Numbered from the stretch's first letter, positions 1-9,910 are shown. The stretch is DNA of 9,910 bases from a virus (IMGVR_UViG_2529293139_000004:1-9910); one strand, 5' to 3'. Program-made: numbers and translations. Notes: generated by a model from the letters alone, not told the origin.

Positions 1-124
1 GCTTTTGCCGTTACGCACCACCCCGTCAGTAGCTGAACAGGAGGGACAGCTGATAGAAACAGAAGCCACTGGAGCACCTCAAAAACACCATCATACACTA
101 AATCAGTAAGTTGGCAGCATCACC
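1..124 (-). mobile_element. IS1 insertion sequence, partial (IRL-proximal 124 bp; rest of element lies beyond window start)
   Basis: Reverse complement of 1-124 reads GGTGATGCTGCCAACTTACTGATTTAGTGTATGATGG..., which is the IS1 left terminal inverted repeat plus the insA upstream region as I recall it. Outer end of IRL is at 124. Confidence 0.9.
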
Positions 125-302
125 CTCTGCACGTTGTTGAATACTTGTCATTTTCATCCACTTATTTCAGGCTTATGTAATTGGCGGTGATTCTACAGCA
201 ACTTGGATGCTTTAGCAGTTCGGACATTAGGCTACGAATGACCTGCCTAGAGGTTTGTTAAGACGCAAAGTGCTGGTGCTTTATGCCTGTGAAGTTTATA
301 GT

Positions 303-327
303 TGTGTACACATAACGAGTACACGAG
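303..327. promoter_or_regulatory. phd-doc promoter operator region (palindromic Phd/Doc binding sites)
   Basis: Perfect 10-bp palindrome TGTGTACACA at 303-312 and a related GAGTACAC half-site at 317-324, immediately upstream of the phd SD. Consistent with known autoregulation of the P1 addiction operon. Exact site boundaries not verified. Confidence 0.5.
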
Positions 328-333
328 GTGTTT

Positions 334-555
334 ATGCAATCCATTAACTTCCGTACCGCGCGCGGCAACCTTTCTGAAGTGCTCAACAATGTTGAGGCCG
401 GGGAAGAGGTTGAAATCACCCGCAGAGGCCGTGAGCCAGCAGTAATTGTCAGCAAGGCTACTTTCGAAGCCTACAAAAAAGCGGCGCTGGATGCTGAATT
501 TGCATCTCTGTTTGACACCCTGGACTCCACCAACAAGGAACTGGTTGACCGATAA
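334..555 (+). CDS. phd: Phd antitoxin (prevent-host-death), 73 aa
   Basis: Translation [44 protein letters not shown]... matches P1 Phd from memory. ATG at 334 is preceded by GAGGTG (325-330); the ORF-track start at 328 is an in-frame GTG just upstream. Stop overlaps the doc start (TAATG). Confidence 0.93.
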
Positions 556-935
556 TGAGGCATATATCACCGGAAGAACTGATAGCGCTTCATGATGCGA
601 ATATAAGCCGCTACGGCGGCCTGCCTGGCATGTCAGATCCGGGCAGGGCAGAGGCCATTATCGGGAGAGTTCAGGCCAGAGTTGCCTACGAAGAGATCAC
701 CGACCTTTTCGAAGTCTCCGCCACCTACCTGGTGGCTACAGCGAGAGGGCATATATTCAATGATGCCAATAAGCGTGCCGCGCTAAACAGTGCGCTGTTA
801 TTTCTACGCCGTAACGGGGTGCAGGTATTTGATTCACCTGAACTGGCAGACCTTACCGTAGGGGCTGCGACCGGAGAGATATCTGTATCTTCTGTCGCCG
901 ACACGTTACGTAGATTGTATGGTTCCGCGGAGTAG
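555..935 (+). CDS. doc: Doc toxin (death on curing), Fic-fold kinase, 126 aa
   Basis: 126-aa product with the Fic-type motif HIFNDANKR; sequence matches P1 Doc from memory. Translationally coupled to phd by a 1-nt overlap. Confidence 0.95.
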
Positions 936-939
936 ATTA

Positions 940-1119
940 ATGGCACGTAAATACAACAAATTGTCCCGTGAAGCGTTAAAGATGCTTCTTGATGGCGTGA
1001 GTCGCCGCGAGGTAAAGCAATACCTGGTTGGTAAGCAAATTGGTGCTAGGACCGCTATTGCTGTGTTATGCCGTCAGGAAATGGTTGTGCTTAAACAGAG
1101 AATGCCGGGCAGCAGATAA
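940..1119 (+). CDS. small hypothetical protein (59 aa from ATG 940), immediately downstream of doc; position corresponds to pdcA of P1
   Basis: ORF-track entry 919..1119; the internal ATG at 940 has GGAG about 12 nt upstream. Basic, possibly helix-rich product. No recognisable domain from sequence alone. Confidence 0.4.
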   Translation: MARKYNKLSREALKMLLDGVSRREVKQYLVGKQIGARTAIAVLCRQEMVVLKQRMPGSR

Positions 1120-1146
1120 AGCCCAATCAGTGATGAAAGGTGTGAT

Positions 1147-2190
1147 GTGAAAGCCGTAATTACTCCCTTTGTACAAAAAGAGCTTGGCGTCGCCACATTC
1201 AAAGTGGATCAGGAAGTCAGAAAGCTGGTGGAGGCTGGCCGTAAATTTATTATGGAGCCGGTGCCGCGTGAGTTAATCGAGCACATGGACGACGGCCTCG
1301 TTGTTTCCGAGCAAACTATGGCAACAAATGAGGCGTTGCAGCCGTTTTTTAACAGCGATGAACTGTTTCGCCGTATTGGTGGAATTGACACGCTGGTGGC
1401 GTGGTTGCGCAGGAAAGAGGGGCAATGCCAGGCCGCAGATCGTAGCTGGTGTGACAACCATATTGTCCACGCAGAACGAGACAATAGCGCGGTGTTGTTG
1501 TGCTGGCATCACGATAACCATTACCGGATGCGTGGTTTTAATGAGCTGAAAGAAACGCTGCATAATAATCGCGTTAACTGGATACTGGATGTCGCCCGTC
1601 AGGAAATGGGGCTTTCAGATGGCCATGATCTAAGTATTCAGGAACTGTGCTGGTGGGCTTTCATGCGCAACATGATGCACCGAATGCCGGAAGAAGTTTG
1701 CCGTATATCAATAAATAAGATGAAAGCCGCAACGCAGGATAGCGGACCTCTGAAAGAGGCGGATATTCGCCCGTATAACGATCGCGCTACAGCATATGTT
1801 CAGATGATGGAAGAACGCGCCGCGCCGATGCGTGCAAAAGTATGCCCTGTGGATGTTGACTCCGACCCTGGCATGGCGCATTTCAAAATACCAAAACTGC
1901 AATCGCTAAAATTACCTGAGTACATGGACTTTGTTGCTTCCCGTCCATGCTGTGGGTGTGGAGCGGCGGGAGCTGGCGCTCACATTACGCCTTATATCGT
2001 TCGTCATAGTCGATTATGCGCGCATGACATTTACGCAATTCCTCTGTGCCAGTCATGCCTGCGTGATATTGAGCGTGACCGCGATAATTGGGAGAAGACG
2101 CACGGTAGGCTGGCGATGCATCAACGATTGTTCTTTGATTACGCGCTTGGAGTCGGCGCTATCACAAGTTACTCGTCGAGCGTTATATAA
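1147..2190 (+). CDS. 347-aa Cys/His-rich protein with HNH-like zinc-binding motifs (position and size suggest the P1 pdcB / DUF968-type protein)
   Basis: GTG start at 1147 preceded by AAAGGTG. Long ORF with motifs CWHHDNH and PCCGCG...H...C...PLCQSC typical of HNH/zinc-hook-like nucleases. Assignment to the pdcB/DUF968 family is from memory and not verified. Confidence 0.7.
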
Positions 2191-2191
2191 A

Positions 2192-2233
2192 ATTGCTCTA
2201 ATGTATTGCTATTTCTTTAATCGATGGTATTAT
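2192..2233 (+). promoter_or_regulatory. C1-type operator(s) overlapping a sigma70-like promoter
   Basis: ATTGCTCTAATGTATTG (2192-2208) matches the P1 C1 operator consensus ATTGCTCTAATAAATTT; a second partial match ATTGCTATTTC starts at 2205. -35 TTGCTA (2206-2211) and -10 TATTAT (2228-2233) with 16-nt spacing. Confidence 0.6.
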
Positions 2234-2278
2234 ATTTCACGTTGATTAGTTGACATGGGCTAATCAGTAGGTGACAGG

Positions 2279-2488
2279 ATGTTACTTAACTGGCAGGGAC
2301 GCCACTTCATGGAAATAAATCACTCACGAATAACATCGTACGAGATTGCGGATTACATGATCCGCACTAAATCTCTTCTATCAGCGAAAGAACTCGCAGC
2401 AATTCTTGAAAAGGAATACCCGCATCTGGATGTCGATAACGCCAGCATTTATCAAAATGAAGCTGGCGGAGTACGGCGGGCGCGATAA
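2279..2488 (+). CDS. hypothetical 69-aa ORF with good RBS downstream of the C1-operated promoter; possibly the N-terminal part of a frameshifted lpa-like gene
   Basis: ATG 2279 preceded by AGGTGA. Plausible protein-like translation. Overlaps the 5' end of the KilA-C ORF in another frame. Confidence 0.35.
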   Translation: MLLNWQGRHFMEINHSRITSYEIADYMIRTKSLLSAKELAAILEKEYPHLDVDNASIYQNEAGGVRRAR

Positions 2489-2804
2489 CCCTATGTACAT
2501 GATTAAGGTATCAGTAGCTAAAGGGATCCTGATTGGGAATTTTGCAAAGGTTGTTGGACTTAAGCAAAACGCGCTGTTTGTCTGGTTACGGGAGAACGGC
2601 ATCCTGATAGCGTCCGGTGGACGTAAAAATGTGCCGTTCCAGCAGTACATCAACGCGGGGTATTTCACGGTGAAAGAAGTGGTGCTGGATGATGAAGATG
2701 GCTACCAGATACGGTTGACGCCTCAATTAACGGGTAAAGGCCAGCAGTGGTTGACGCGTAAACTGCTCGATGCTGGCTTGTTAAAACCGGTGGCGGCTGA
2801 ATAA
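2406..2804 (+). CDS. KilA-C (ANT)-domain DNA-binding protein; occupies the position of the late promoter activator (lpa) region of P1
   Basis: Translation contains GNFAKVVGLKQNALFVWLRENGIL...NVPFQQYINAGYFTVKE, which fits the KilA-C/ANT domain pattern. ORF-track start 2406 is TTG; in-frame ATGs at 2430, 2457 and 2493 all lack a convincing SD, so the true start is unresolved. Confidence 0.55.
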   Translation: MKRNTRIWMSITPAFIKMKLAEYGGRDNPMYMIKVSVAKGILIGNFAKVVGLKQNALFVWLRENGILIASGGRKNVPFQQYINAGYFTVKEVVLDDEDGYQIRLTPQLTGKGQQWLTRKLLDAGLLKPVAAE

Positions 2805-2811
2805 TGGAAGA

Positions 2812-2833
2812 ATGCCCGGTTGATGCCGGGCAT
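2812..2833. terminator. hairpin between convergent genes (KilA-C gene and c1), probable bidirectional terminator
   Basis: 8-bp perfect stem ATGCCCGG/CCGGGCAT with 6-nt loop, followed on the plus strand by AATTTATT. Lies 8 nt after the KilA-C ORF stop and directly 3' of the c1 stop. Confidence 0.55.
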
Positions 2834-2836
2834 AAT

Positions 2837-3688
2837 TTATTGCGCGCTTTCGGGGTTGTCGTTTACTGGCTGCCCCTTCTTAGTTTTACGGCTGCGCGTA
2901 ACTGATGCGGCTGATTTGACCTTTTTCTCTTCGCGAGTGATGGCAATTTGTTTTTTTACATTTTCAATATCTGCCAGGCGATATATTTTTGCCTGGGGCC
3001 AGCGGTCGCAGATGATCGGTTCTATGGAGTCATATAGGCTAAATTTTGCTTTTTCGAATTCACCGTTGATGATAATTCCATCACGGAGAGTTTCATCGCA
3101 GATAAACACGCCACATAGTGGCACATGGTAACTCACTGATTTACCATCATTGTAGTTAGGGCTACTGGAAATGTAGTGGACGCGCAGCATTGTTTCGCTA
3201 AAGCCGTGTACGCGCATACGGAATTTTTCATCCTCCGGGTACTGCCTCATTAGCTCTTTTGTTGCTTCCAGGTTCTCTATGTATTTCGCACTGTGCTCAT
3301 TGATCCCCGCGCTTTTTTGGATGCGAATGTCCTTATCAATCAGATGAATAATGCGGCCAGCGGTCATGTTGACGCTGTTTACAGCTTCTGTCTGATAAGT
3401 TGTAACCTTACGTACACCGCGAAGGATGTTAGGCACTGGATATAAAATAGTCTTTGGGATATTGAGGTCTGGGTACTGTTCCAGTTCCCGCGCCATTAAA
3501 GTCCATTTATCAATTTCAGCCTGAATGCTGTCCGTTTCTTTGAACGGCAGAACGACAACCGGGCGAACAGGACGACCGTCGCTGGCGGCATCAACGTGTT
3601 GGGCGCGTGCAACAGCTTTTTTTAGAAAGAGATCCCTGAAGCTGACGAACTCCTGGTACAGTTGTTCGCCGTAGACATAATTTATCAT
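2837..3688 (-). CDS. c1: C1 repressor of lysis/lysogeny, 283 aa
   Basis: 283-aa product starting MINYVYGEQLYQEFVSFRDLF..., matching P1 C1 from memory. Strong SD (GGAGGAGG) upstream on the minus strand. Confidence 0.95.
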   Translation of the reverse strand: MINYVYGEQLYQEFVSFRDLFLKKAVARAQHVDAASDGRPVRPVVVLPFKETDSIQAEIDKWTLMARELEQYPDLNIPKTILYPVPNILRGVRKVTTYQTEAVNSVNMTAGRIIHLIDKDIRIQKSAGINEHSAKYIENLEATKELMRQYPEDEKFRMRVHGFSETMLRVHYISSSPNYNDGKSVSYHVPLCGVFICDETLRDGIIINGEFEKAKFSLYDSIEPIICDRWPQAKIYRLADIENVKKQIAITREEKKVKSAASVTRSRKTKKGQPVNDNPESAQ

Positions 3689-3781
3689 TGATCCTCCTCC
3701 AGAATTGACATGGTCAATAACGCCCGGCTGAGAAAACCGGTCATTACTGACCTATATTATAAAGTGATCAAACAAAAATAA

Positions 3782-3799
3782 TAGATTTATTAGTGCATT
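3782..3799 (-). promoter_or_regulatory. weak C1 operator-like site at the coi/c1 junction
   Basis: Reverse complement TGCACTAATAAATCT matches 13 of 15 positions of the operator core TGCTCTAATAAATTT. Confidence 0.3.
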
Positions 3800-4008
3800 T
3801 ATTGTGAGTCTAACTGGTTAGTTGCCATGAGATATTCGATTGTGTCAGTGAGGTCATCCAGGTCGTCTTGGGTGATGCGGTACTCCTGATTGGATATCTT
3901 TGAGTAGTGTTCAGCAATGGCGCGGGCAGCGTCGGTTTCGGCAGGGTCTACAGATAAAGCGTTAGAGCAATGTCTAACGTCGTCGATGGTTGGTTGAATG
4001 AAAGCCAT
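3799..4008 (-). CDS. coi: Coi (C1 inactivator), 69 aa
   Basis: 69-aa acidic product immediately upstream of c1 on the same strand, with SD TGAGG. Size and position match P1 coi. Confidence 0.88.
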   Translation of the reverse strand: MAFIQPTIDDVRHCSNALSVDPAETDAARAIAEHYSKISNQEYRITQDDLDDLTDTIEYLMATNQLDSQ

Positions 4009-4247
4009 AATTATGCCTCACTGTATTGACAACACAGAGCCTGAAGCTCTGACCTACTGTTTCACCCATGATCCATGCTGGGGTAATCTAACAACATTGC
4101 GCTGTGTGTAAGATGAGCAATGCATAGCTGTAATGCCGTTGTATAAGGTTTCCCTGTTTGCTCATTTCCTTCTGAGCCGCTCTACAACGCTGAAGACACA
4201 TTAAATAGTGAATCCAAAGTCGTATTACGTAACGGCGGCAAAACTAT

Positions 4248-4264
4248 AATTTATTAGAGCAATT
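4248..4264 (-). promoter_or_regulatory. C1 operator (Op99-type), minus orientation
   Basis: Reverse complement AATTGCTCTAATAAATT is a near-perfect match to consensus ATTGCTCTAATAAATTT. Upstream of coi-c1. Confidence 0.65.
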
Positions 4265-4329
4265 GCCAGACAACTATGAAAAACAATCCAGTTTTTAGCT
4301 GGTGGAGTGGGATTTTTCTCTCAAAATTT

Positions 4330-4346
4330 ATTGCTCTAATAATTCT
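4330..4346 (+). promoter_or_regulatory. C1 operator, plus orientation
   Basis: ATTGCTCTAATAATTCT between coi and loxP. Confidence 0.65.
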
Positions 4347-4389
4347 TGATTTTTGTGCATGGCTGGACGTAAACTCCTCTTCGGACCTG

Positions 4390-4423
4390 ATAACTTCGTA
4401 TAGCATACATTATACGAAGTTAT
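4390..4423. other. loxP site-specific recombination site (34 bp)
   Basis: Exact ATAACTTCGTATA-GCATACAT-TATACGAAGTTAT, i.e. canonical loxP written in reverse-complement orientation of the spacer. Confidence 0.97.
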
Positions 4424-4494
4424 CTTAAGGGTTATTGAACATGATCAATTTACCTGTAAATCCATACAGTTCAATACCTTATCAGGTCAAATAG

Positions 4495-4516
4495 TGATCA
4501 CTTGATCATTTGATCA
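4495..4516. promoter_or_regulatory. cluster of three TGATCA (Dam GATC) hexamers at 8-bp spacing in the cre upstream region; likely methylation-sensitive promoter element
   Basis: TGATCA at 4495-4500, 4503-4508 and 4511-4516; a further GATC at 4443. P1 cre promoters are reported to be Dam-regulated (established knowledge, recalled). Confidence 0.5.
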
Positions 4517-4612
4517 AGGTTGCGCTACGTAAAATCTGCGAAATGTTGGCGGTGTTAGTCCTACAGATTTCGCGTAGCGCACTTAGCACCACCAATCAAT
4601 CAGAGGTGAAAA

Positions 4613-4834
4613 ATGGGATATTCAGCTGCTAAAGTGTCCACTCATCTTGAGCTTGAGAAAAACCGTGGTTACTGGCGGGCAAAAGGGTTTGAGCGTGATA
4701 GTTACCAACTGTCATTATCTCGCGGTGAAGAGAAAATAGAACGCACGCGCGGTCGCTGGCGTTTCTATGACGAGAACCATAAACAGGTAAAGGCAGAGCC
4801 GATCCTGTACACTTTACTTAAAACCATTATCTGA
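4613..4834 (+). CDS. hypothetical 73-aa protein encoded between loxP and cre
   Basis: ATG 4613 preceded by strong SD GAGGTG with 4-nt spacer. Charged, protein-like product. Stop at 4832-4834 lies 7 nt before the cre ATG, suggesting translational coupling. Not a gene I know to be annotated in P1. Confidence 0.4.
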   Translation: MGYSAAKVSTHLELEKNRGYWRAKGFERDSYQLSLSRGEEKIERTRGRWRFYDENHKQVKAEPILYTLLKTII

Positions 4835-4841
4835 GTGTTAA

Positions 4842-5873
4842 ATGTCCAATTTACTGACCGTACACCAAAATTTGCCTGCATTACCGGTCGATGCAACGAG
4901 TGATGAGGTTCGCAAGAACCTGATGGACATGTTCAGGGATCGCCAGGCGTTTTCTGAGCATACATGGAAAATGCTTCTGTCCGTTTGCCGGTCGTGGGCG
5001 GCGTGGTGCAAGTTGAATAACCGGAAGTGGTTTCCCGCAGAACCTGAAGATGTTCGCGATTATCTTCTATATCTTCAGGCGCGCGGTCTGGCAGTGAAAA
5101 CTATCCAGCAACATTTGGGCCAGCTAAATATGCTTCATCGTCGGTCCGGCCTGCCACGTCCAAGTGACAGCAATGCTGTTTCACTGGTCATGCGACGGAT
5201 CCGAAAAGAAAACGTTGATGCCGGTGAGCGTGCAAAACAGGCGCTGGCGTTCGAACGCACTGATTTCGACCAGGTTCGTTCACTCATGGAAAATAGCGAT
5301 CGCTGCCAGGATATACGTAATCTGGCATTTCTGGGGATTGCTTATAACACCCTGTTACGTATAGCCGAAATTTCCAGGATCAGGGTTAAAGATATCTCAC
5401 GTACTGACGGTGGGAGAATGTTAATCCATATTGGCAGAACGAAAACGCTGGTTAGCACCGCTGGTGTAGAGAAGGCACTTAGCCTGGGGGTAACTAAACT
5501 GGTTGAGCGATGGATTTCTGTCTCTGGTGTAGCTGATGATCCGAATAACTACCTGTTTTGCCGCGTCAGAAAAAATGGTGTTGCCGCGCCAACATCCACC
5601 AGCCAGCTATCAACTCGCGCCCTGGAAGGGATTTTTGAAGCAACTCACCGATTGATTTACGGGGCAAAAGATGACTCTGGTCAGCGATACCTGGCCTGGT
5701 CTGGACATAGTGCCCGTGTCGGTGCCGCGCGAGATATGGCCCGCGCCGGAGTTTCAATACCGGAGATCATGCAAGCTGGTGGCTGGACCAACGTAAATAT
5801 TGTCATGAACTACATTCGTAACCTGGATAGTGAAACGGGGGCTATGGTGCGCCTGCTGGAAGATGGCAATTAG
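4842..5873 (+). CDS. cre: Cre tyrosine recombinase, 343 aa
   Basis: Translation MSNLLTVHQNLPALPVDATSDEVRKNLMDMFRDRQAFSEHTWKMLLSVCRSWAAWCKLNNRKWFPAEPEDVRDYLLYLQARGLAVKTIQQHLGQLNMLHRRSGLPRPSDSNAVSLVMRRIRKENVDAGERAKQALAFERTDFDQVRSLMENSDRCQDIRNLAFLGIAYNTLLRIAEISRIRVKDISRTDGGRMLIHIGRTKTLVSTAGVEKALSLGVTKLVERWISVSGVADDPNNYLFCRVRKNGVAAPTSTSQLSTRALEGIFEATHRLIYGAKDDSGQRYLAWSGHSARVGAARDMARAGVSIPEIMQAGGWTNVNIVMNYIRNLDSETGAMVRLLEDGN is near-identical to canonical P1 Cre. Confidence 0.97.
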   Translation: MSNLLTVHQNLPALPVDATSDEVRKNLMDMFRDRQAFSEHTWKMLLSVCRSWAAWCKLNNRKWFPAEPEDVRDYLLYLQARGLAVKTIQQHLGQLNMLHRRSGLPRPSDSNAVSLVMRRIRKENVDAGERAKQALAFERTDFDQVRSLMENSDRCQDIRNLAFLGIAYNTLLRIAEISRIRVKDISRTDGGRMLIHIGRTKTLVSTAGVEKALSLGVTKLVERWISVSGVADDPNNYLFCRVRKNGVAAPTSTSQLSTRALEGIFEATHRLIYGAKDDSGQRYLAWSGHSARVGAARDMARAGVSIPEIMQAGGWTNVNIVMNYIRNLDSETGAMVRLLEDGN

Positions 5874-5890
5874 CCGTTCATTTGCGCTTT

Positions 5891-5907
5891 ATTGCTCTAA
5901 TTATTTG
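5891..5907 (+). promoter_or_regulatory. C1 operator between cre and the cra-like ORF
   Basis: ATTGCTCTAATTATTTG matches the C1 operator consensus. Confidence 0.6.
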
Positions 5908-5923
5908 ATATTTATGGTGACGC

Positions 5924-6235
5924 ATGCGGAAGGATTTCAAAATAGACGGAAAATATGTGGTGCTGTCTGTAAGCTCTCAAATTCAGTCACCATCTGTCAT
6001 TGTCACCGTAAAGTTTAGCGATAGGATGCCTGATATCGACTCGATATCTGTTGCGTTCCCCGTTAAAAACATGCGGAGTGCTGAACATTTTGTGATGAAT
6101 GCAACGGAGGAGGAAGCGCGGCGCGGGCTTACTAGAGTGATGGTGGAATTTGGCGAACTCCTGGGTAAGGTAAACAATGCCCTTTCAATCAGTTCAGCAA
6201 GATCCAAAGCGTTAACAGCTTCCATGATGAAATAA
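5924..6235 (+). CDS. hypothetical 103-aa protein in the position of cra (cre-associated) of P1
   Basis: ATG 5924 with GGTGA upstream; sits between cre and ref as cra does in P1. Identity to Cra is inferred from synteny only. Confidence 0.55.
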   Translation: MRKDFKIDGKYVVLSVSSQIQSPSVIVTVKFSDRMPDIDSISVAFPVKNMRSAEHFVMNATEEEARRGLTRVMVEFGELLGKVNNALSISSARSKALTASMMK

Positions 6236-6238
6236 AAA

Positions 6239-6259
6239 AGCCTGGCAAGGAGCCAGGCT
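6239..6259. terminator. GC-rich hairpin after the cra-like ORF; U-tract is on the minus-strand side
   Basis: Stem GCCTGGC/GCCAGGC with 5-nt loop, flanked by A6 on the plus-strand 5' side (T-run if read on the minus strand). Orientation of function ambiguous. Confidence 0.4.
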
Positions 6260-6364
6260 GCACAAAAGAGCGGGTTTGTATTCCGCACCAATCAATCAAG
6301 AAGGAGTATAGCACACAGGTACTGAAGTGAAAAAATGTGATTCGCGAGAAACAAAATATCTACT

Positions 6365-6388
6365 ATTGCTCTAATTGATTGCTATAAT
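6365..6388 (+). promoter_or_regulatory. C1 operator overlapping an extended -10 promoter upstream of ref (Op2-like)
   Basis: ATTGCTCTAATTGATTG (6365-6381) followed by TGcTATAAT (6380-6388). P1 ref is known to be C1-controlled. Confidence 0.6.
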
Positions 6389-6447
6389 TTAGCCGCAGTT
6401 TTTGTCAACTACGAAGACGTTGCCATTACTTCACTCCTTGACATCAT

Positions 6448-6473
6448 AGGCGGCCATTAGGCCGCCTTTTTTT
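6448..6473 (+). terminator. rho-independent terminator-like hairpin immediately upstream of the ref start codon
   Basis: Stem AGGCGGCC/GGCCGCCT, 4-nt loop ATTA, followed by T7 (6467-6473). The ref ATG is at 6480. Confidence 0.55.
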
Positions 6474-6479
6474 GACCAT

Positions 6480-7040
6480 ATGAAAACAATCGAACAAAAA
6501 CTTGAACAGCGCCGCGAGTGGCAGAAGGCAGCCAGAGAACGAGCGATCGCTCGGCAACGGGAAAAGTTGGCTGACCCCGCCTGGCGAGAATCGCAATATC
6601 AGAAAATGCGGGATTCTATCGACCGCCGTATCGCTAAACAGAAAGAGTGCCCACCAGCCAGCAAAACGCGGAAAAGTGCGGTAAAAATAAAATCTCGTGG
6701 CTTGAAGGGACGAACACCGACGGCAGAGGAACGGCACATAGCCAATGCTCTTGGCGCTCTCCCCTGCATTGCGTGCTATATGCATGGAGTAATATCTGAA
6801 GAGGTGTCTCTGCACCATATTTCCGGTCGTACCGCGCCTGGTTGTCACAAAAAGCAATTGCCACTTTGTAGATGGCACCACCAGCATGCAGCACCGGCTG
6901 AAGTAAGAGCAAAATACCCCTGGCTGGTCCCTGTTCATGCCGATGGAGTGGTTGGAGGCAAGAAAGAATTCACCCTGCTGAACAAGTCAGAGATGGAGTT
7001 ACTGGCTGACGCCTATGAGATGGAAACTTTATTAGTCTAA
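6480..7040 (+). CDS. ref: Ref, RecA-dependent HNH endonuclease (recombination enhancement function), 186 aa
   Basis: 186-aa product with basic N-terminus and the HNH core (...CRWHHQH...); matches size and sequence character of P1 Ref. Confidence 0.92.
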   Translation: MKTIEQKLEQRREWQKAARERAIARQREKLADPAWRESQYQKMRDSIDRRIAKQKECPPASKTRKSAVKIKSRGLKGRTPTAEERHIANALGALPCIACYMHGVISEEVSLHHISGRTAPGCHKKQLPLCRWHHQHAAPAEVRAKYPWLVPVHADGVVGGKKEFTLLNKSEMELLADAYEMETLLV

Positions 7041-7108
7041 TATATTTATTATTTCTGTTTTTATTAAAACTGAGTTTCTCTGTTATTATCGAGAGTAGTT
7101 CTTCGTAT

Positions 7109-7876
7109 ATGGAGCATAAGCCAAATATGACAACGCACAAAATCCCAAAAAAATTTTGGGACAAAAAGATGGTTGAATGGCCATGTCCTAATTGCGGGCA
7201 AAAAACCCTGAGAATTTTAGACGAATCTTTCATCTGTAAGGACACTGCTGAAACTATCAAAATGCAGGCTGAGGAATGGTTTGACTTAGAGTATACAAGC
7301 TCGGTATTCAGTTGCATGTCACAGTGCGTAAGACCTCAATGTAAGGAGGTAGTGGCATGCACAGGCAGAAGTGGTCTAGAAGAAGATTGGGCCGAGCATA
7401 CAGGACTTTATTACTATCGCTGGTATGAACCATTAAGTTTTACTCCTGGGTTAAAGCTCTTTCTTATCCCGAACATGTGCCCTGAAGACATAGCCTTGCC
7501 TATAAACACCTCGTTTGCACTAAGCACAATCCATCCAGGTGCCGCTGCAAATCTAATAAGAACATCTGTAGAACGATTACTTACAGCTATCGGGGTAACG
7601 GAAACAAACGAAAAAGGGAATAGAATTAACCTCCATAATAGGATTGAGATGATCCCTAGTGAACATTCTGGCTTTAAAAGCCTGTTATTTGCGATTAAGT
7701 TTCTTGGAAATGCGGGTAGCCACCGCTATGAAAACGTTACCGCTGATGACTTGGATAACTCATACGAGATCATGAATTTTATTCTAAGAGATTTATATTC
7801 GGATAATCGCAAAAAGGTTAGTGAGTTAGCTAATAATCTAGACAAAAAATTTAATCCTCAAAAACAAAAAGGTTGA
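7109..7876 (+). CDS. 255-aa protein: N-terminal Cys-rich zinc-ribbon-like region plus C-terminal DUF4145-like helical domain; candidate accessory/defense gene
   Basis: CPNCGQ...C...CMSQCVRPQCKEVVAC in the N-terminal half. C-terminal AAANLIRTSVERLL...FAIKFLGNAGSH...YEIMNFILRDLY fits the DUF4145 pattern as I recall it. Gene is visibly AT-rich compared with flanking P1 core genes. Confidence 0.75.
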   Translation: MEHKPNMTTHKIPKKFWDKKMVEWPCPNCGQKTLRILDESFICKDTAETIKMQAEEWFDLEYTSSVFSCMSQCVRPQCKEVVACTGRSGLEEDWAEHTGLYYYRWYEPLSFTPGLKLFLIPNMCPEDIALPINTSFALSTIHPGAAANLIRTSVERLLTAIGVTETNEKGNRINLHNRIEMIPSEHSGFKSLLFAIKFLGNAGSHRYENVTADDLDNSYEIMNFILRDLYSDNRKKVSELANNLDKKFNPQKQKG

Positions 7877-7995
7877 CATCTGACAAGTGACTTCAGTCAG
7901 AATCATCACACGCCCGGTACGGATGGATCCCTTTTCAAATATTCCATGGACGGCACAGTCTGAGTACCGGGCGCTACCTTCCGTTGTATTGCTAA

Positions 7996-8020
7996 GCCGC
8001 CGCTGGTGGCTTTCTTTTTT
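7996..8020 (+). terminator. rho-independent terminator-like hairpin 12 nt upstream of the next start codon
   Basis: GCCGCC-GCT-GGTGGC (one G-U pair) followed by TTTCTTTTTT (8011-8020). Confidence 0.5.
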
Positions 8021-8031
8021 GTAGGGGCGCT

Positions 8032-8673
8032 ATGGATAAGAAAATATGCGTTGTTTCAATGAGCGTCGGCAAACCGGCGTCAATGACTGCTGCATGGATC
8101 AATAATGAGCTGATAATGGCTGAGCGGACCAGCTACCCTGAACGCCGCCGCGATATGGAACTCCAGCTGCTGCGCGAATTGCGAGAAAAAGAGGAAAAGA
8201 GTTTTATCGTGCTGGTGGAAGAGGAAAACAGCTTTATTACGGGTCGAGTTGGCCAGCGTGTAAGGTTGCGCGATCCCTTCATGAACGGCAGGCCGGTACT
8301 AATTGAAGCAATGCAGATTTACAAGGAGCTGGAACGCCAGAAAGCAATCAAGTTACCGCGCAAGGAATCCGGCAAATACATCCTCCACCAAAGCATCTTC
8401 GATTCCGAACACGATAAAAAAGGCGATGAATTTTTCAACATCAACTGGAGCGAAATAACGACAGAGCATGTTCTGACGTTACTATGTTGCTTTGTGACGG
8501 AATACAACAACGTTGCCAGCGCCGACTACATCAGGGCAATGGCTGGAGAAGTTGAGGCCCGCCAAGAACCATCGTTACTAAGTCCACTGATTAACATAAT
8601 TCTGGGCACCCAGATACTGGAACAAAAAAAAGTGCCGAAAGGGGTATTAACAGGCAAGCATAATTATTTTTAA
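8032..8673 (+). CDS. hypothetical 213-aa protein with no domain I can recognise
   Basis: ATG 8032 preceded by AGGGG. Long ORF with GC content typical of the P1 backbone, flanked by AT-rich genes. May be a core phage gene (mat-like position) or a partner of neighbouring genes. Confidence 0.7.
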   Translation: MDKKICVVSMSVGKPASMTAAWINNELIMAERTSYPERRRDMELQLLRELREKEEKSFIVLVEEENSFITGRVGQRVRLRDPFMNGRPVLIEAMQIYKELERQKAIKLPRKESGKYILHQSIFDSEHDKKGDEFFNINWSEITTEHVLTLLCCFVTEYNNVASADYIRAMAGEVEARQEPSLLSPLINIILGTQILEQKKVPKGVLTGKHNYF

Positions 8674-8766
8674 CAATTATATACAGTAATTTTGTGGTTA
8701 CATTCTCCATTGATTTTCTAACCGCTTTATCATTAGATGTAACAGCATGTAAATCATTTAAAATGG

Positions 8767-9657
8767 ATGAAAGCAATGGGGAATGAAGTTTATCAAAGTC
8801 AAAAATGCAAGTTGAAATATTCAAAATCTCAAATTGATAGGGCTGCTCAATTGATAAGGCACGGGTGTAGTGACGAAGAAAGGCAGCAATCTATTGAAAT
8901 GATACAAAATTTCCGTGAGCTGCATCTTTATCCATTAATGCTCATGAAAAATCATTTAGCAAGAGCAGCTGCTAAGGTTGACAAAGACAAAAAGATTCTC
9001 GTTGCAAGAAGACTTAAGCGACTTTCTACCATAATAGATAAACTAGAGCGTCCTAGTCTTGATGGAGGCAGAACTAGCAATGCAATTAAATTAACACGGA
9101 TGCAGGACGTTGGCGGATGTAGGGCCATTGTCAGAAACTTAGACCAGTTGATACAGCTAAAGGAACGTCTTTTAAAAAGCAAATCTGTTCATAGGATTGT
9201 TAAAGAGTATGATTATCTTACTCCCAAAGACAGCGGCTATAGTGGAATCCACCTTGCATACAGTTGCTTCGATCAGAAAGAGGATCAATATCCGTGGCGA
9301 AAAACAAAGATTGAGATACAGTTAAGAACTCAATTGCAGCATGCTTGGGCTACTAGCCTTGAAATAATTGATACCCTTGAAGGTATCAAGCTGAAAACTT
9401 CAAGTGAAGGGCATCCAGAATGGAGACGATTTTTCTATCTAGCCGGATGTCTTGTAGCGCACGACGAAAAAGCCTGCACTCTTGATGAGCTAGTTGTATC
9501 TCAGTATGAAGGCGAGCTTAAAGAGCTGGAACGGACTTTATCTGTACGGAGGAAACTAAGCACATACACCATCGCCGGTAGTGACTCCAACTTACTGATA
9601 GTGTTTTATGTTCAGATAATGCCCGATGACCTTGTCATGCAGCTCCACCGATTTTGA
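8767..9657 (+). CDS. RelA/SpoT-family nucleotidyltransferase (toxSAS/CapRel-like), 3' end interrupted by IS1: native codons 1-270 (8767-9576), then 26 IS1-derived codons
   Basis: Synthetase-domain motifs [33 protein letters not shown] and [13 protein letters not shown]. The IS1 IRR begins at 9577 inside the reading frame, so the last 26 aa and the stop are IS1 sequence. Confidence 0.8.
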
Positions 9658-9910
9658 GAACGACAGTGACTTCCGTCCCAGCCTTGCCAGATGTTGTCTC
9701 AGATTCAGATTATGTCGCTCAATGCGCTGAGTGTAACGCTTGCTGATAACGTGCAGCTTTCCCTTCAGGCGTGATTCATACAGCGGCCAGCCATCCGTCA
9801 TCCATACCACGACCTCAAAGGCCGACAGCAGGCTCAGAAGACGCGCCAGTGTGGCCAGAGTGCGTTCACCGAAAACGTGCGCCACAACTAGTCCTCCGTA
9901 TCCTGTCATA
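9577..9910 (-). mobile_element. IS1 insertion sequence, partial (IRR and 3' part of insB; continues beyond window end)
   Basis: GGTAGTGACTCCAACTTACTGAT at 9577-9599 is an IS1 right inverted repeat variant; the downstream sequence encodes the InsB C-terminus on the minus strand. Confidence 0.9.
9592..9910 (-). CDS. insB: IS1 transposase InsB, C-terminal portion (N-terminus beyond window)
   Basis: Minus-strand translation ...[98 protein letters not shown] matches IS1 InsB; stop codon lies within the IRR. Confidence 0.88.

Follow-up and report, generated by a model that had tools for sequence, protein, structure and literature searches.

The question raised by this locus was whether a group of P1 genes lying between two same-orientation copies of insertion sequence (IS) 1, with no pac genes among them, represents a mobile IS1-borne module or what is left of a phage. 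The DNA analysed (the window: 9,910 nucleotides from a virus, IMGVR_UViG_2529293139_000004:1-9910) carries phd-doc, c1/coi, loxP-cre and ref of phage P1, with IS1 sequence at both ends. The window is very probably a contig of an Escherichia coli plasmid that descended from a P1-like phage-plasmid and is no longer able to be a phage. Elements of this kind, and the plasmid lineage itself, have been described before; the finding holds up but is an ordinary one, with little significance beyond bookkeeping.

In the proposed history, the 9.45-kb segment enclosed by IS1 would have retained the P1 functions that serve a plasmid, namely post-segregational killing by phd-doc and multimer resolution by Cre/loxP. 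Also retained would be the C1/Coi immunity core with its operators, Ref, Mat, and the accessory genes in the slot that holds res-mod in P1. Two microhomology deletions would have removed lpa, pacA with the pac site, pacB and icd-ant. Because Lpa, PacA with the pac site, and PacB are lost, late transcription and packaging would be impossible, and the element would presumably be inherited as a plasmid only. The retained functions may be kept as stabilisers of a low-copy plasmid and as silencers of residual C1-controlled genes. At the edges, the left IS1 would have replaced hsdRSM throughout the lineage, and a separate right IS1 would have been inserted after capRel codon 267 in the source strain, E. 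coli E1520. The locus would be a clean example of a P1-type phage-plasmid eroding to an ordinary plasmid: packaging and late control are lost first, via small illegitimate deletions; addiction, multimer resolution and repressor functions persist; and IS elements then erode the edges.

Loss of the packaging block

In the P1 reference, lpa-pacA-pacB lie between pdcB and c1, as the original prediction, made from the sequence of the window, had stated. It had also noted that the corresponding interval of the window was only about 650 bp long, with no terminase-like open reading frame (ORF): the measured distance from the pdcB stop (2190) to the c1 stop (2837) was 646 bp, and no terminase ORF was present. 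For the mapping of junctions, the comparators were the P1-like phage vB_EcoM-673R5 (95.3 kb; hereafter 673R5) and the plasmid pGZM7b, both with the intact order hsdRSM-phd-doc-pdcA-pdcB-lpa-pacA-pacB-(ash)-icd-ant-c1. Both aligned with the window except for two gaps. Between pdcB and c1, the following remnants were identified:

2279-2488, plus strand: lpa' fusion ORF, in which out-of-context sequence follows about 54 late-promoter activator codons (Pfam BPP1_LPA, positions 1-45 of 131).
2437-2510, plus strand: internal pacB fragment of about 70 bp between the two deletions (98.6% identical to the interior of 673R5 pacB and 84% to P1 pacB).
2507-2836, plus strand: 3' end of ant, a gene for a KilAC-type antirepressor, and the spacer between ant and c1 (collinear with this region in pGZM7b).

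Window positions 125-2442 were collinear with the comparators, up to about lpa codon 54. The first deletion junction lies at about 2440 and has TAA microhomology, and the second has GGTA microhomology. The two deletions correspond to about 2.25 kb and about 2.1 kb of lost DNA. They took out pacA and icd entirely, the greater part of lpa and of ant, and the two ends of pacB. Since the pac site is within pacA in the P1 reference, it was lost together with pacA. An ORF at 2406-2804 matched positions 20-106 of 108 of the Pfam ANT profile.

Of the intact Lpa that characterises a functional P1-like phage-plasmid, about 54 of 150 codons are left. As for pacA, pacB and the pac site, the window holds the pacB piece of about 70 bp and the complete relative pEC974-2 (described below) holds none; pacA belongs to the conserved gene set that functional P1-like phage-plasmids all share (PMC9603915).

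Both deletions are more than 2 kb from either IS1, and their junctions indicate that the pac region was removed by two illegitimate, IS-independent deletions at 3-4 bp of microhomology. An identical lpa'-pacB'-'ant double deletion was found in JAIBMJ010000091.1 (GCA_019459715.1), where the left flank is hot-humD-phd without IS1 and the homology boundary falls near window position 258. The deletion allele is thus independent of the IS1 copies, and its occurrence there suggests spread by recombination between P1-like elements. In the sibling plasmid pTB202 (NZ_CP029244.1, 5000-5767 of the extract), the 3' end of pdcB, lpa, pacA and pacB were lost via an IS1B. This loss is independent of the microhomology deletions in the window, and loss of the packaging block is therefore recurrent.

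The original prediction of an IS1-remodelled, packaging-defective P1 derivative was thus right in part. It stands in that pacA, pacB and lpa are gone and that the left IS1 abuts a 6.5-kb loss, but the implied role of IS1 in the loss of the pac genes had to be given up. For genome scans the lesson is that a gene block missing beside IS elements need not have been removed by them.

Source contig and complete relatives

The window is exactly one contig of the E. coli E1520 scaffold GL871779.1 (88,213 bp; assembly GCA_000190815.1), and was placed at 1226-11135 of the scaffold part compared. Runs of N adjoin it on both sides, directly left of position 1 and directly right of 9910. The presence of IS1 at both window ends is in large part due to the assembler having broken in repeats. 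A metagenome contig covering the same region starts within the left IS1 and ends just short of an IS3. A practical lesson for genome scans is that IS copies may terminate a window on either side for no other reason than that the contig breaks there.

The matches of the window to known elements are at 96-100% DNA identity, so that chance is no issue. Positions 1-9576 were 99.94% identical to pEC974-2 (NZ_CP021842.1) and to about 10 other plasmids. Like the E1520 window, pEC974-2 (92 kb), the closest complete relative, carries the left IS1 scar and the double deletion of lpa-pacAB-icd-ant; unlike pEC974-2, E1520 has an extra IS1, of another isoform, in capRel. The P1-like content of pEC974-2 is reduced: 28.2 kb are shared with the 95.3-kb 673R5 (about 30% of a P1-like genome), and the common parts are repA-parAB, genes 22/23, pmgS, a helicase gene and the window region. 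In this comparison with 673R5, lpa or pacAB were not found anywhere in pEC974-2. The remainder of the plasmid consists of IS1, IS26, IS3 and Tn3-family elements, tet(A), a class 1 integron, bcs genes and an autotransporter gene.

P1-like phage-plasmids become plasmids through gene loss (Pfeifer & Rocha 2024, Nat Commun, PMC10879196), and the P1g1-related plasmids in Dataset S7 of that study include NZ_CP021842 (pEC974-2), CP021846, CP033379, CP050045 and CP029244. As in other P1-derived plasmids, many close P1g1 homologues are present and essential phage functions are missing, the repA-parAB evidence coming from the relative pEC974-2. A non-P1 backbone, considered on account of the PLSDB/MOB-suite label 'IncHI1B', was rejected, the repA-parAB region being 97% identical to that of P1-like phage; judged by this match, the label is misleading for the pEC974-2 lineage.

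The comparison took in a part of the E1520 scaffold (about 24 kb), which leaves room for a still-functional P1-like phage-plasmid with lpa and pacAB relocated elsewhere on the replicon. Such a relocation is exceedingly improbable: the lpa and pacB remnants left in place show deletion, the near-identical complete pEC974-2, with only about 30% of a P1-like genome, is devoid of lpa and pacAB, and blocks of this plasmid, among them bcsC, a group II intron and IS elements, recur collinearly in the readable E1520 scaffold flanks. We infer that the E1520 plasmid has no pac genes elsewhere.

Some points nonetheless weigh against the descent to a plasmid-only element described here. E1520 was read for about 24 kb of its 88-kb scaffold, and the absence of pacAB and of morphogenesis genes is taken from its near-identical complete relatives; for the head, tail and lysis set, the corresponding figure is the 28 of 95 kb shared by pEC974-2. 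The far side of the right IS1 is in an assembly gap, and there a simple insertion is indistinguishable from a deletion or an inversion. Finally, the functionality of the retained genes is predicted from their sequence.

Within the readable part of the E1520 scaffold, three different IS1 isoforms were found inside 14 kb, and the bcsC block was inverted and had changed sides compared with pEC974-2. The placement of bcsC and the mix of isoforms point to further IS-mediated rearrangement hidden in the assembly gaps. The junction of the IS1 at the scaffold start corresponds to P1-like position 18314 in E1520 and to 17933 in pEC974-2. Separately, JAEXLD010000103.1 (a 2,953-bp contig, 99% identical to window 1313-4265) is filed in GTDB under a 'Bacillota bacterium' metagenome-assembled genome, and is most likely mis-binned E. 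coli plasmid DNA.

The two IS1 copies

The edges of the window consist of the following features (IRL and IRR: left and right terminal inverted repeats):

1-124, minus strand: left IS1, IRL end with the first 23 codons of insA; ends ...GGCAGCATCACC at 124, and the contig breaks inside the repeat.
125-151, minus strand: hsdM', a type I restriction-modification methylase gene cut by the left IS1, of which codons 1-9 (MTSIQQRAE) are left.
8776-9657, plus strand: capRel'::IS1 fusion ORF, capRel codons 1-267 (to 9576) and 26 codons from the IS1 IRR.
9577-9910, minus strand: right IS1, IRR end with the 3' part of insB; starts with the IRR terminus GGTAGTGACTCCAACTTACTGATAG, and the contig breaks inside the repeat.

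Both copies run from IRR to IRL, left to right. The original prediction placed inward-facing IS1 ends at 124 and 9577 with insAB on the minus strand in both, and this was borne out: the minus strand of 1-69 encodes the InsA N-terminus VASVSISCPSCSATDGVVRNGKS, and the minus strand of the right copy encodes a C-terminal InsB portion (Pfam DDE_Tnp_IS1, E 3e-52).

The left IS1 is an old, lineage-defining scar. Its flanks, CTATGCGTC on the outer and CTCTGCACG on the inner side, correspond to 673R5 positions 21139 and 27598, and when they were compared no target duplication was found. The 6,458-bp hsdRSM operon, which occupies the corresponding place in the intact relatives pGZM7b and 673R5, is missing at this point. 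P1-like DNA lies on both sides of the left IS1, in pEC974-2 and in the E1520 scaffold alike; the outer neighbour is the region downstream of pmgS and the inner neighbour is the ninth hsdM codon. The outer IRR terminus of this copy is intact in the scaffold (165-364 of the part compared). As the target duplication is absent and hsdRSM is missing, the scar was probably formed by IS1-mediated adjacent deletion or by recombination between two IS1 copies. An examination of the IS1 flanks for such a signature had been suggested from the outset, and on the left it gave the combination of no duplication and an adjacent loss of 6.5 kb. The left junction was recovered at 100% identity in at least 19 plasmids, and 46 plasmids covered at least 80% of a 200-bp junction query; their sources were humans, poultry, pigs, wild birds, flies, cheese and river water.

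In isoform, the right IS1 differs from the left one (184 of 200 positions identical over the comparable sequence). Against the IS1 of plasmid pCoo it showed 99.7% identity, and against the third copy, located where the scaffold begins, 90%. The capRel junction of the right IS1 is private to E1520: no spanning record was found with a 240-bp BLAST probe in 5,426 complete E. coli genomes and 72,556 PLSDB plasmids, and exact scans of GTDB representatives and Joint Genome Institute (JGI) metagenomes found none. In an index of 153 billion genes, the CapRel-IS1 fusion protein encoded by 8776-9657 (EGB30546.1 of E. coli E1520 at NCBI) was present in one contig only, GL871779.1. The left and right IS1 copies are separate events.

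Relative to the IS1 of pCoo, the right copy has an extra A at 9890, 20 nt from the contig end, that would frameshift insB and may be a sequencing or assembly error.

The uniqueness of the capRel-IS1 junction among all databases searched, the end of the contig in a repeat beside a gap, and this 1-bp indel so near the contig end are what would be seen if the junction were an assembly chimera and no real insertion had occurred. Set against this, the join falls exactly at the IS1 IRR terminus, as in a real insertion, with 334 bp of IS1 contiguous after it, and capRel has been independently broken by other mobile elements in relatives, such events being common here. A chimera is accordingly rated as quite improbable, and a real IS1 insertion in capRel is the preferred reading.

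The signature of a simple insertion of the right IS1 would be a 9-bp repeat of ACCATCGCC followed by capRel from codon 268 onward. The 3' end of capRel is not what follows past the gap: the scaffold has bcsC and an IS3-family remnant there, their order inverted with respect to pEC974-2. A model in which the right IS1 arose from an IS1-mediated inversion between capRel and the AraC-adjacent IS1 of the relatives fits the scaffold order; it was not adopted, as the identity between the right IS1 and the one at the scaffold start is no more than 90%, which lends no support to a simple duplication, and the gap hides the decisive sequence.

The other proposal made in the original prediction was that of an IS1-mobilisable module, that is, a Tn9-like composite transposon moving the P1 addiction, immunity and Cre-lox functions as a unit. 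Direct IS1 pairs can transpose, as Tn9 does. Like Tn9-type transposons, the window has two direct IS1 copies around a passenger segment (9,452 bp), and the inner termini at 124 and 9577 are intact, as is the outer IRR of the left copy in the scaffold. The resemblance ends there. Unlike the copies of such transposons, those of the window are 8% divergent, no target duplication is evident at their flanks, no second context is known, and one of them is a deletion scar, with P1-like DNA on both sides. Outside the whole IS1 unit, the left outer flank is CTATGCGTC and the right outer flank falls in the assembly gap. The right copy has an apparent insB frameshift, and both this copy and its junction occur in one assembly only, so that the unit is not seen in more than one location. 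Among the relatives read, the segment never lay outside P1-derived contexts, and the ends of the window are contig breaks. There is no evidence for the composite transposon in any of these observations; it is highly improbable, and the proposal was dropped in favour of the eroded P1-derived plasmid.

Truncation of capRel by the right IS1

The only feature here that could prompt a new experiment is the truncated CapRel, a defence protein of the fused toxSAS toxin-antitoxin type whose gene stands at the place of res-mod in P1. The window protein was assigned to RelA_SpoT by Pfam, and its intact relative matched PDC-S33 of PADLOC and, over the full length, PDB 7ZTB (E 8.6e-186, 74% identical). 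Like CapRelSJ46, the intact relative keeps R79, R116, Y155 and a YXXY motif (YPNY), and is located in a P1-like element, as in phage SJ46. The toxSYNTH-domain residues R79, R116 and Y155 are also conserved in the window CapRel. Unlike CapRelSJ46, the window gene is without the autoinhibitory part formed by the pseudo-zinc-finger domain (pseudo-ZFD) and YXXY: the ORF leaves capRel after codon 267, at the domain border, YPNY is found in the intact relatives only, and 26 IS1-derived residues are added. The promoter region and codons 1-267 showed zero differences from the intact relatives.

In the work of Zhang et al. (2022, Nature, PMC9712102), the CapRelSJ46(1-272) fragment was toxic by itself and was neutralised in trans by residues 273-373. 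The fragment in the window (1-267) nearly coincides with this toxic fragment. From this likeness E1520 might carry a split CapRel toxin, held in check by a C-terminal antitoxin fragment acting in trans from elsewhere on the plasmid (a natural, bicistronic-like split) or by a host suppressor, or tolerated at native expression; we regard this as unlikely. ORFs that encode only the C-terminal part of CapRel exist in other genomes, as found by exact look-ups, and for one of them E1520 was not among the 10 of 13 contigs listed.

At least four independent disruptions of capRel were seen in other E. coli relatives, all within codons 190-255. Two of these are insertions, of an IS3-family element at codon 234 and of a Tn3-family element at codon 248; the other two are a stop near codon 190 and a deletion of 42 bp at codons 241-255. 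So few cases, obtained through a biased retrieval, allow no conclusion from their clustering. In every disrupted relative, an ORF of 84 amino acids for the C-terminal part was still adjacent. In the 6.05-Mb record CP050212.1, the P1 remnant with the same deletions has an intact capRel, and its neighbours are a P1-type helicase gene, a fragment of RHS and pieces of IS1; this remnant is either a chromosomal integration or a cointegrate.

Retained P1 genes and sites

The genes and sites retained between the IS1 copies are, from left to right:

334-555, plus strand: phd antitoxin gene (Pfam PhdYeFM; 72 of 73 residues, 98.6%, as in P1 Phd).
555-935, plus strand: doc toxin gene (Pfam Fic/DOC; 125 of 126 residues, 99.2%, as in P1 Doc).
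919-1119, plus strand: pdcA (97% identity to P1 PdcA).
1147-2190, plus strand: pdcB, DUF968 / HNH endonuclease family (95.4% identity to P1 PdcB).
2192-2208, plus strand: C1 operator Olpa, ahead of the truncated lpa (operator-pattern match; position matches P1 Olpa).
2837-3688, minus strand: c1, primary repressor gene, intact (281 of 283 residues, 99.3%, as in P1 C1).
3799-4008, minus strand: coi, C1 inactivator gene (97.1% identity to P1 Coi).
4390-4423, plus strand: loxP, canonical 34 bp (exact match to ATAACTTCGTATAGCATACATTATACGAAGTTAT).
4613-4834, plus strand: cra (95.9% identity to P1 Cra).
4842-5873, plus strand: cre recombinase gene, intact (Pfam Phage_integrase; 339 of 343 residues, 98.8%, as in P1 Cre).
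5924-6235, plus strand: c8 (89.3% identity to P1 C8).
6480-7040, plus strand: ref, RecA-dependent nuclease gene (Pfam RecA_dep_nuc; 91.9% identity to P1 Ref).
7127-7876, plus strand: DUF4145 / phrog_1305 gene (Pfam and PHROG matches), on an 812-bp insertion at 7055-7866.
8032-8673, plus strand: mat, maturation control gene (93.9% identity to P1 Mat).

The predicted content of phd-doc, c1/coi, loxP-cre and ref was found as stated, at 91.9-99.3% protein identity to P1 and with an exact loxP. The gene order phd-doc-pdcA-pdcB ... c1-coi-loxP-cra-cre-c8-ref-mat is that of P1 (NC_005856.1), 673R5 and pGZM7b, and the proteins are 89-99% identical to those of P1. Unlike these three elements, the window has a truncated lpa, has lost pacA, the pac site and most of pacB, and has IS1 in place of hsdRSM or humD-hot on the left; it also differs from P1 in the DUF4145 gene between ref and mat.

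The phd and doc genes (73 and 126 amino acids) are adjacent and intact behind Pphd, with a stop/start overlap at 555. The immC core (c1, coi and C1 operators) and Cre/loxP, both features of a functional P1-like phage-plasmid (Punavirus), are present, and seven C1-operator-like sites were seen in the window, compared with 0.06 expected. Searches with PADLOC gave nothing convincing for PdcB, Ref, the DUF4145 protein or Mat, and Rfam gave zero matches at gathering thresholds over the whole window.

The 812-bp insertion is missing at the corresponding site in P1 and 673R5. It lies between ref/Omat and mat, and the product of its DUF4145 gene has 249 amino acids and belongs to phrog_1305, annotated as 'DNA binding protein'. 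At 6466/6467, 13 nt 5' of the ref start codon, one base that all close relatives have is missing from the window; this site falls in the ribosome-binding or promoter region of ref.

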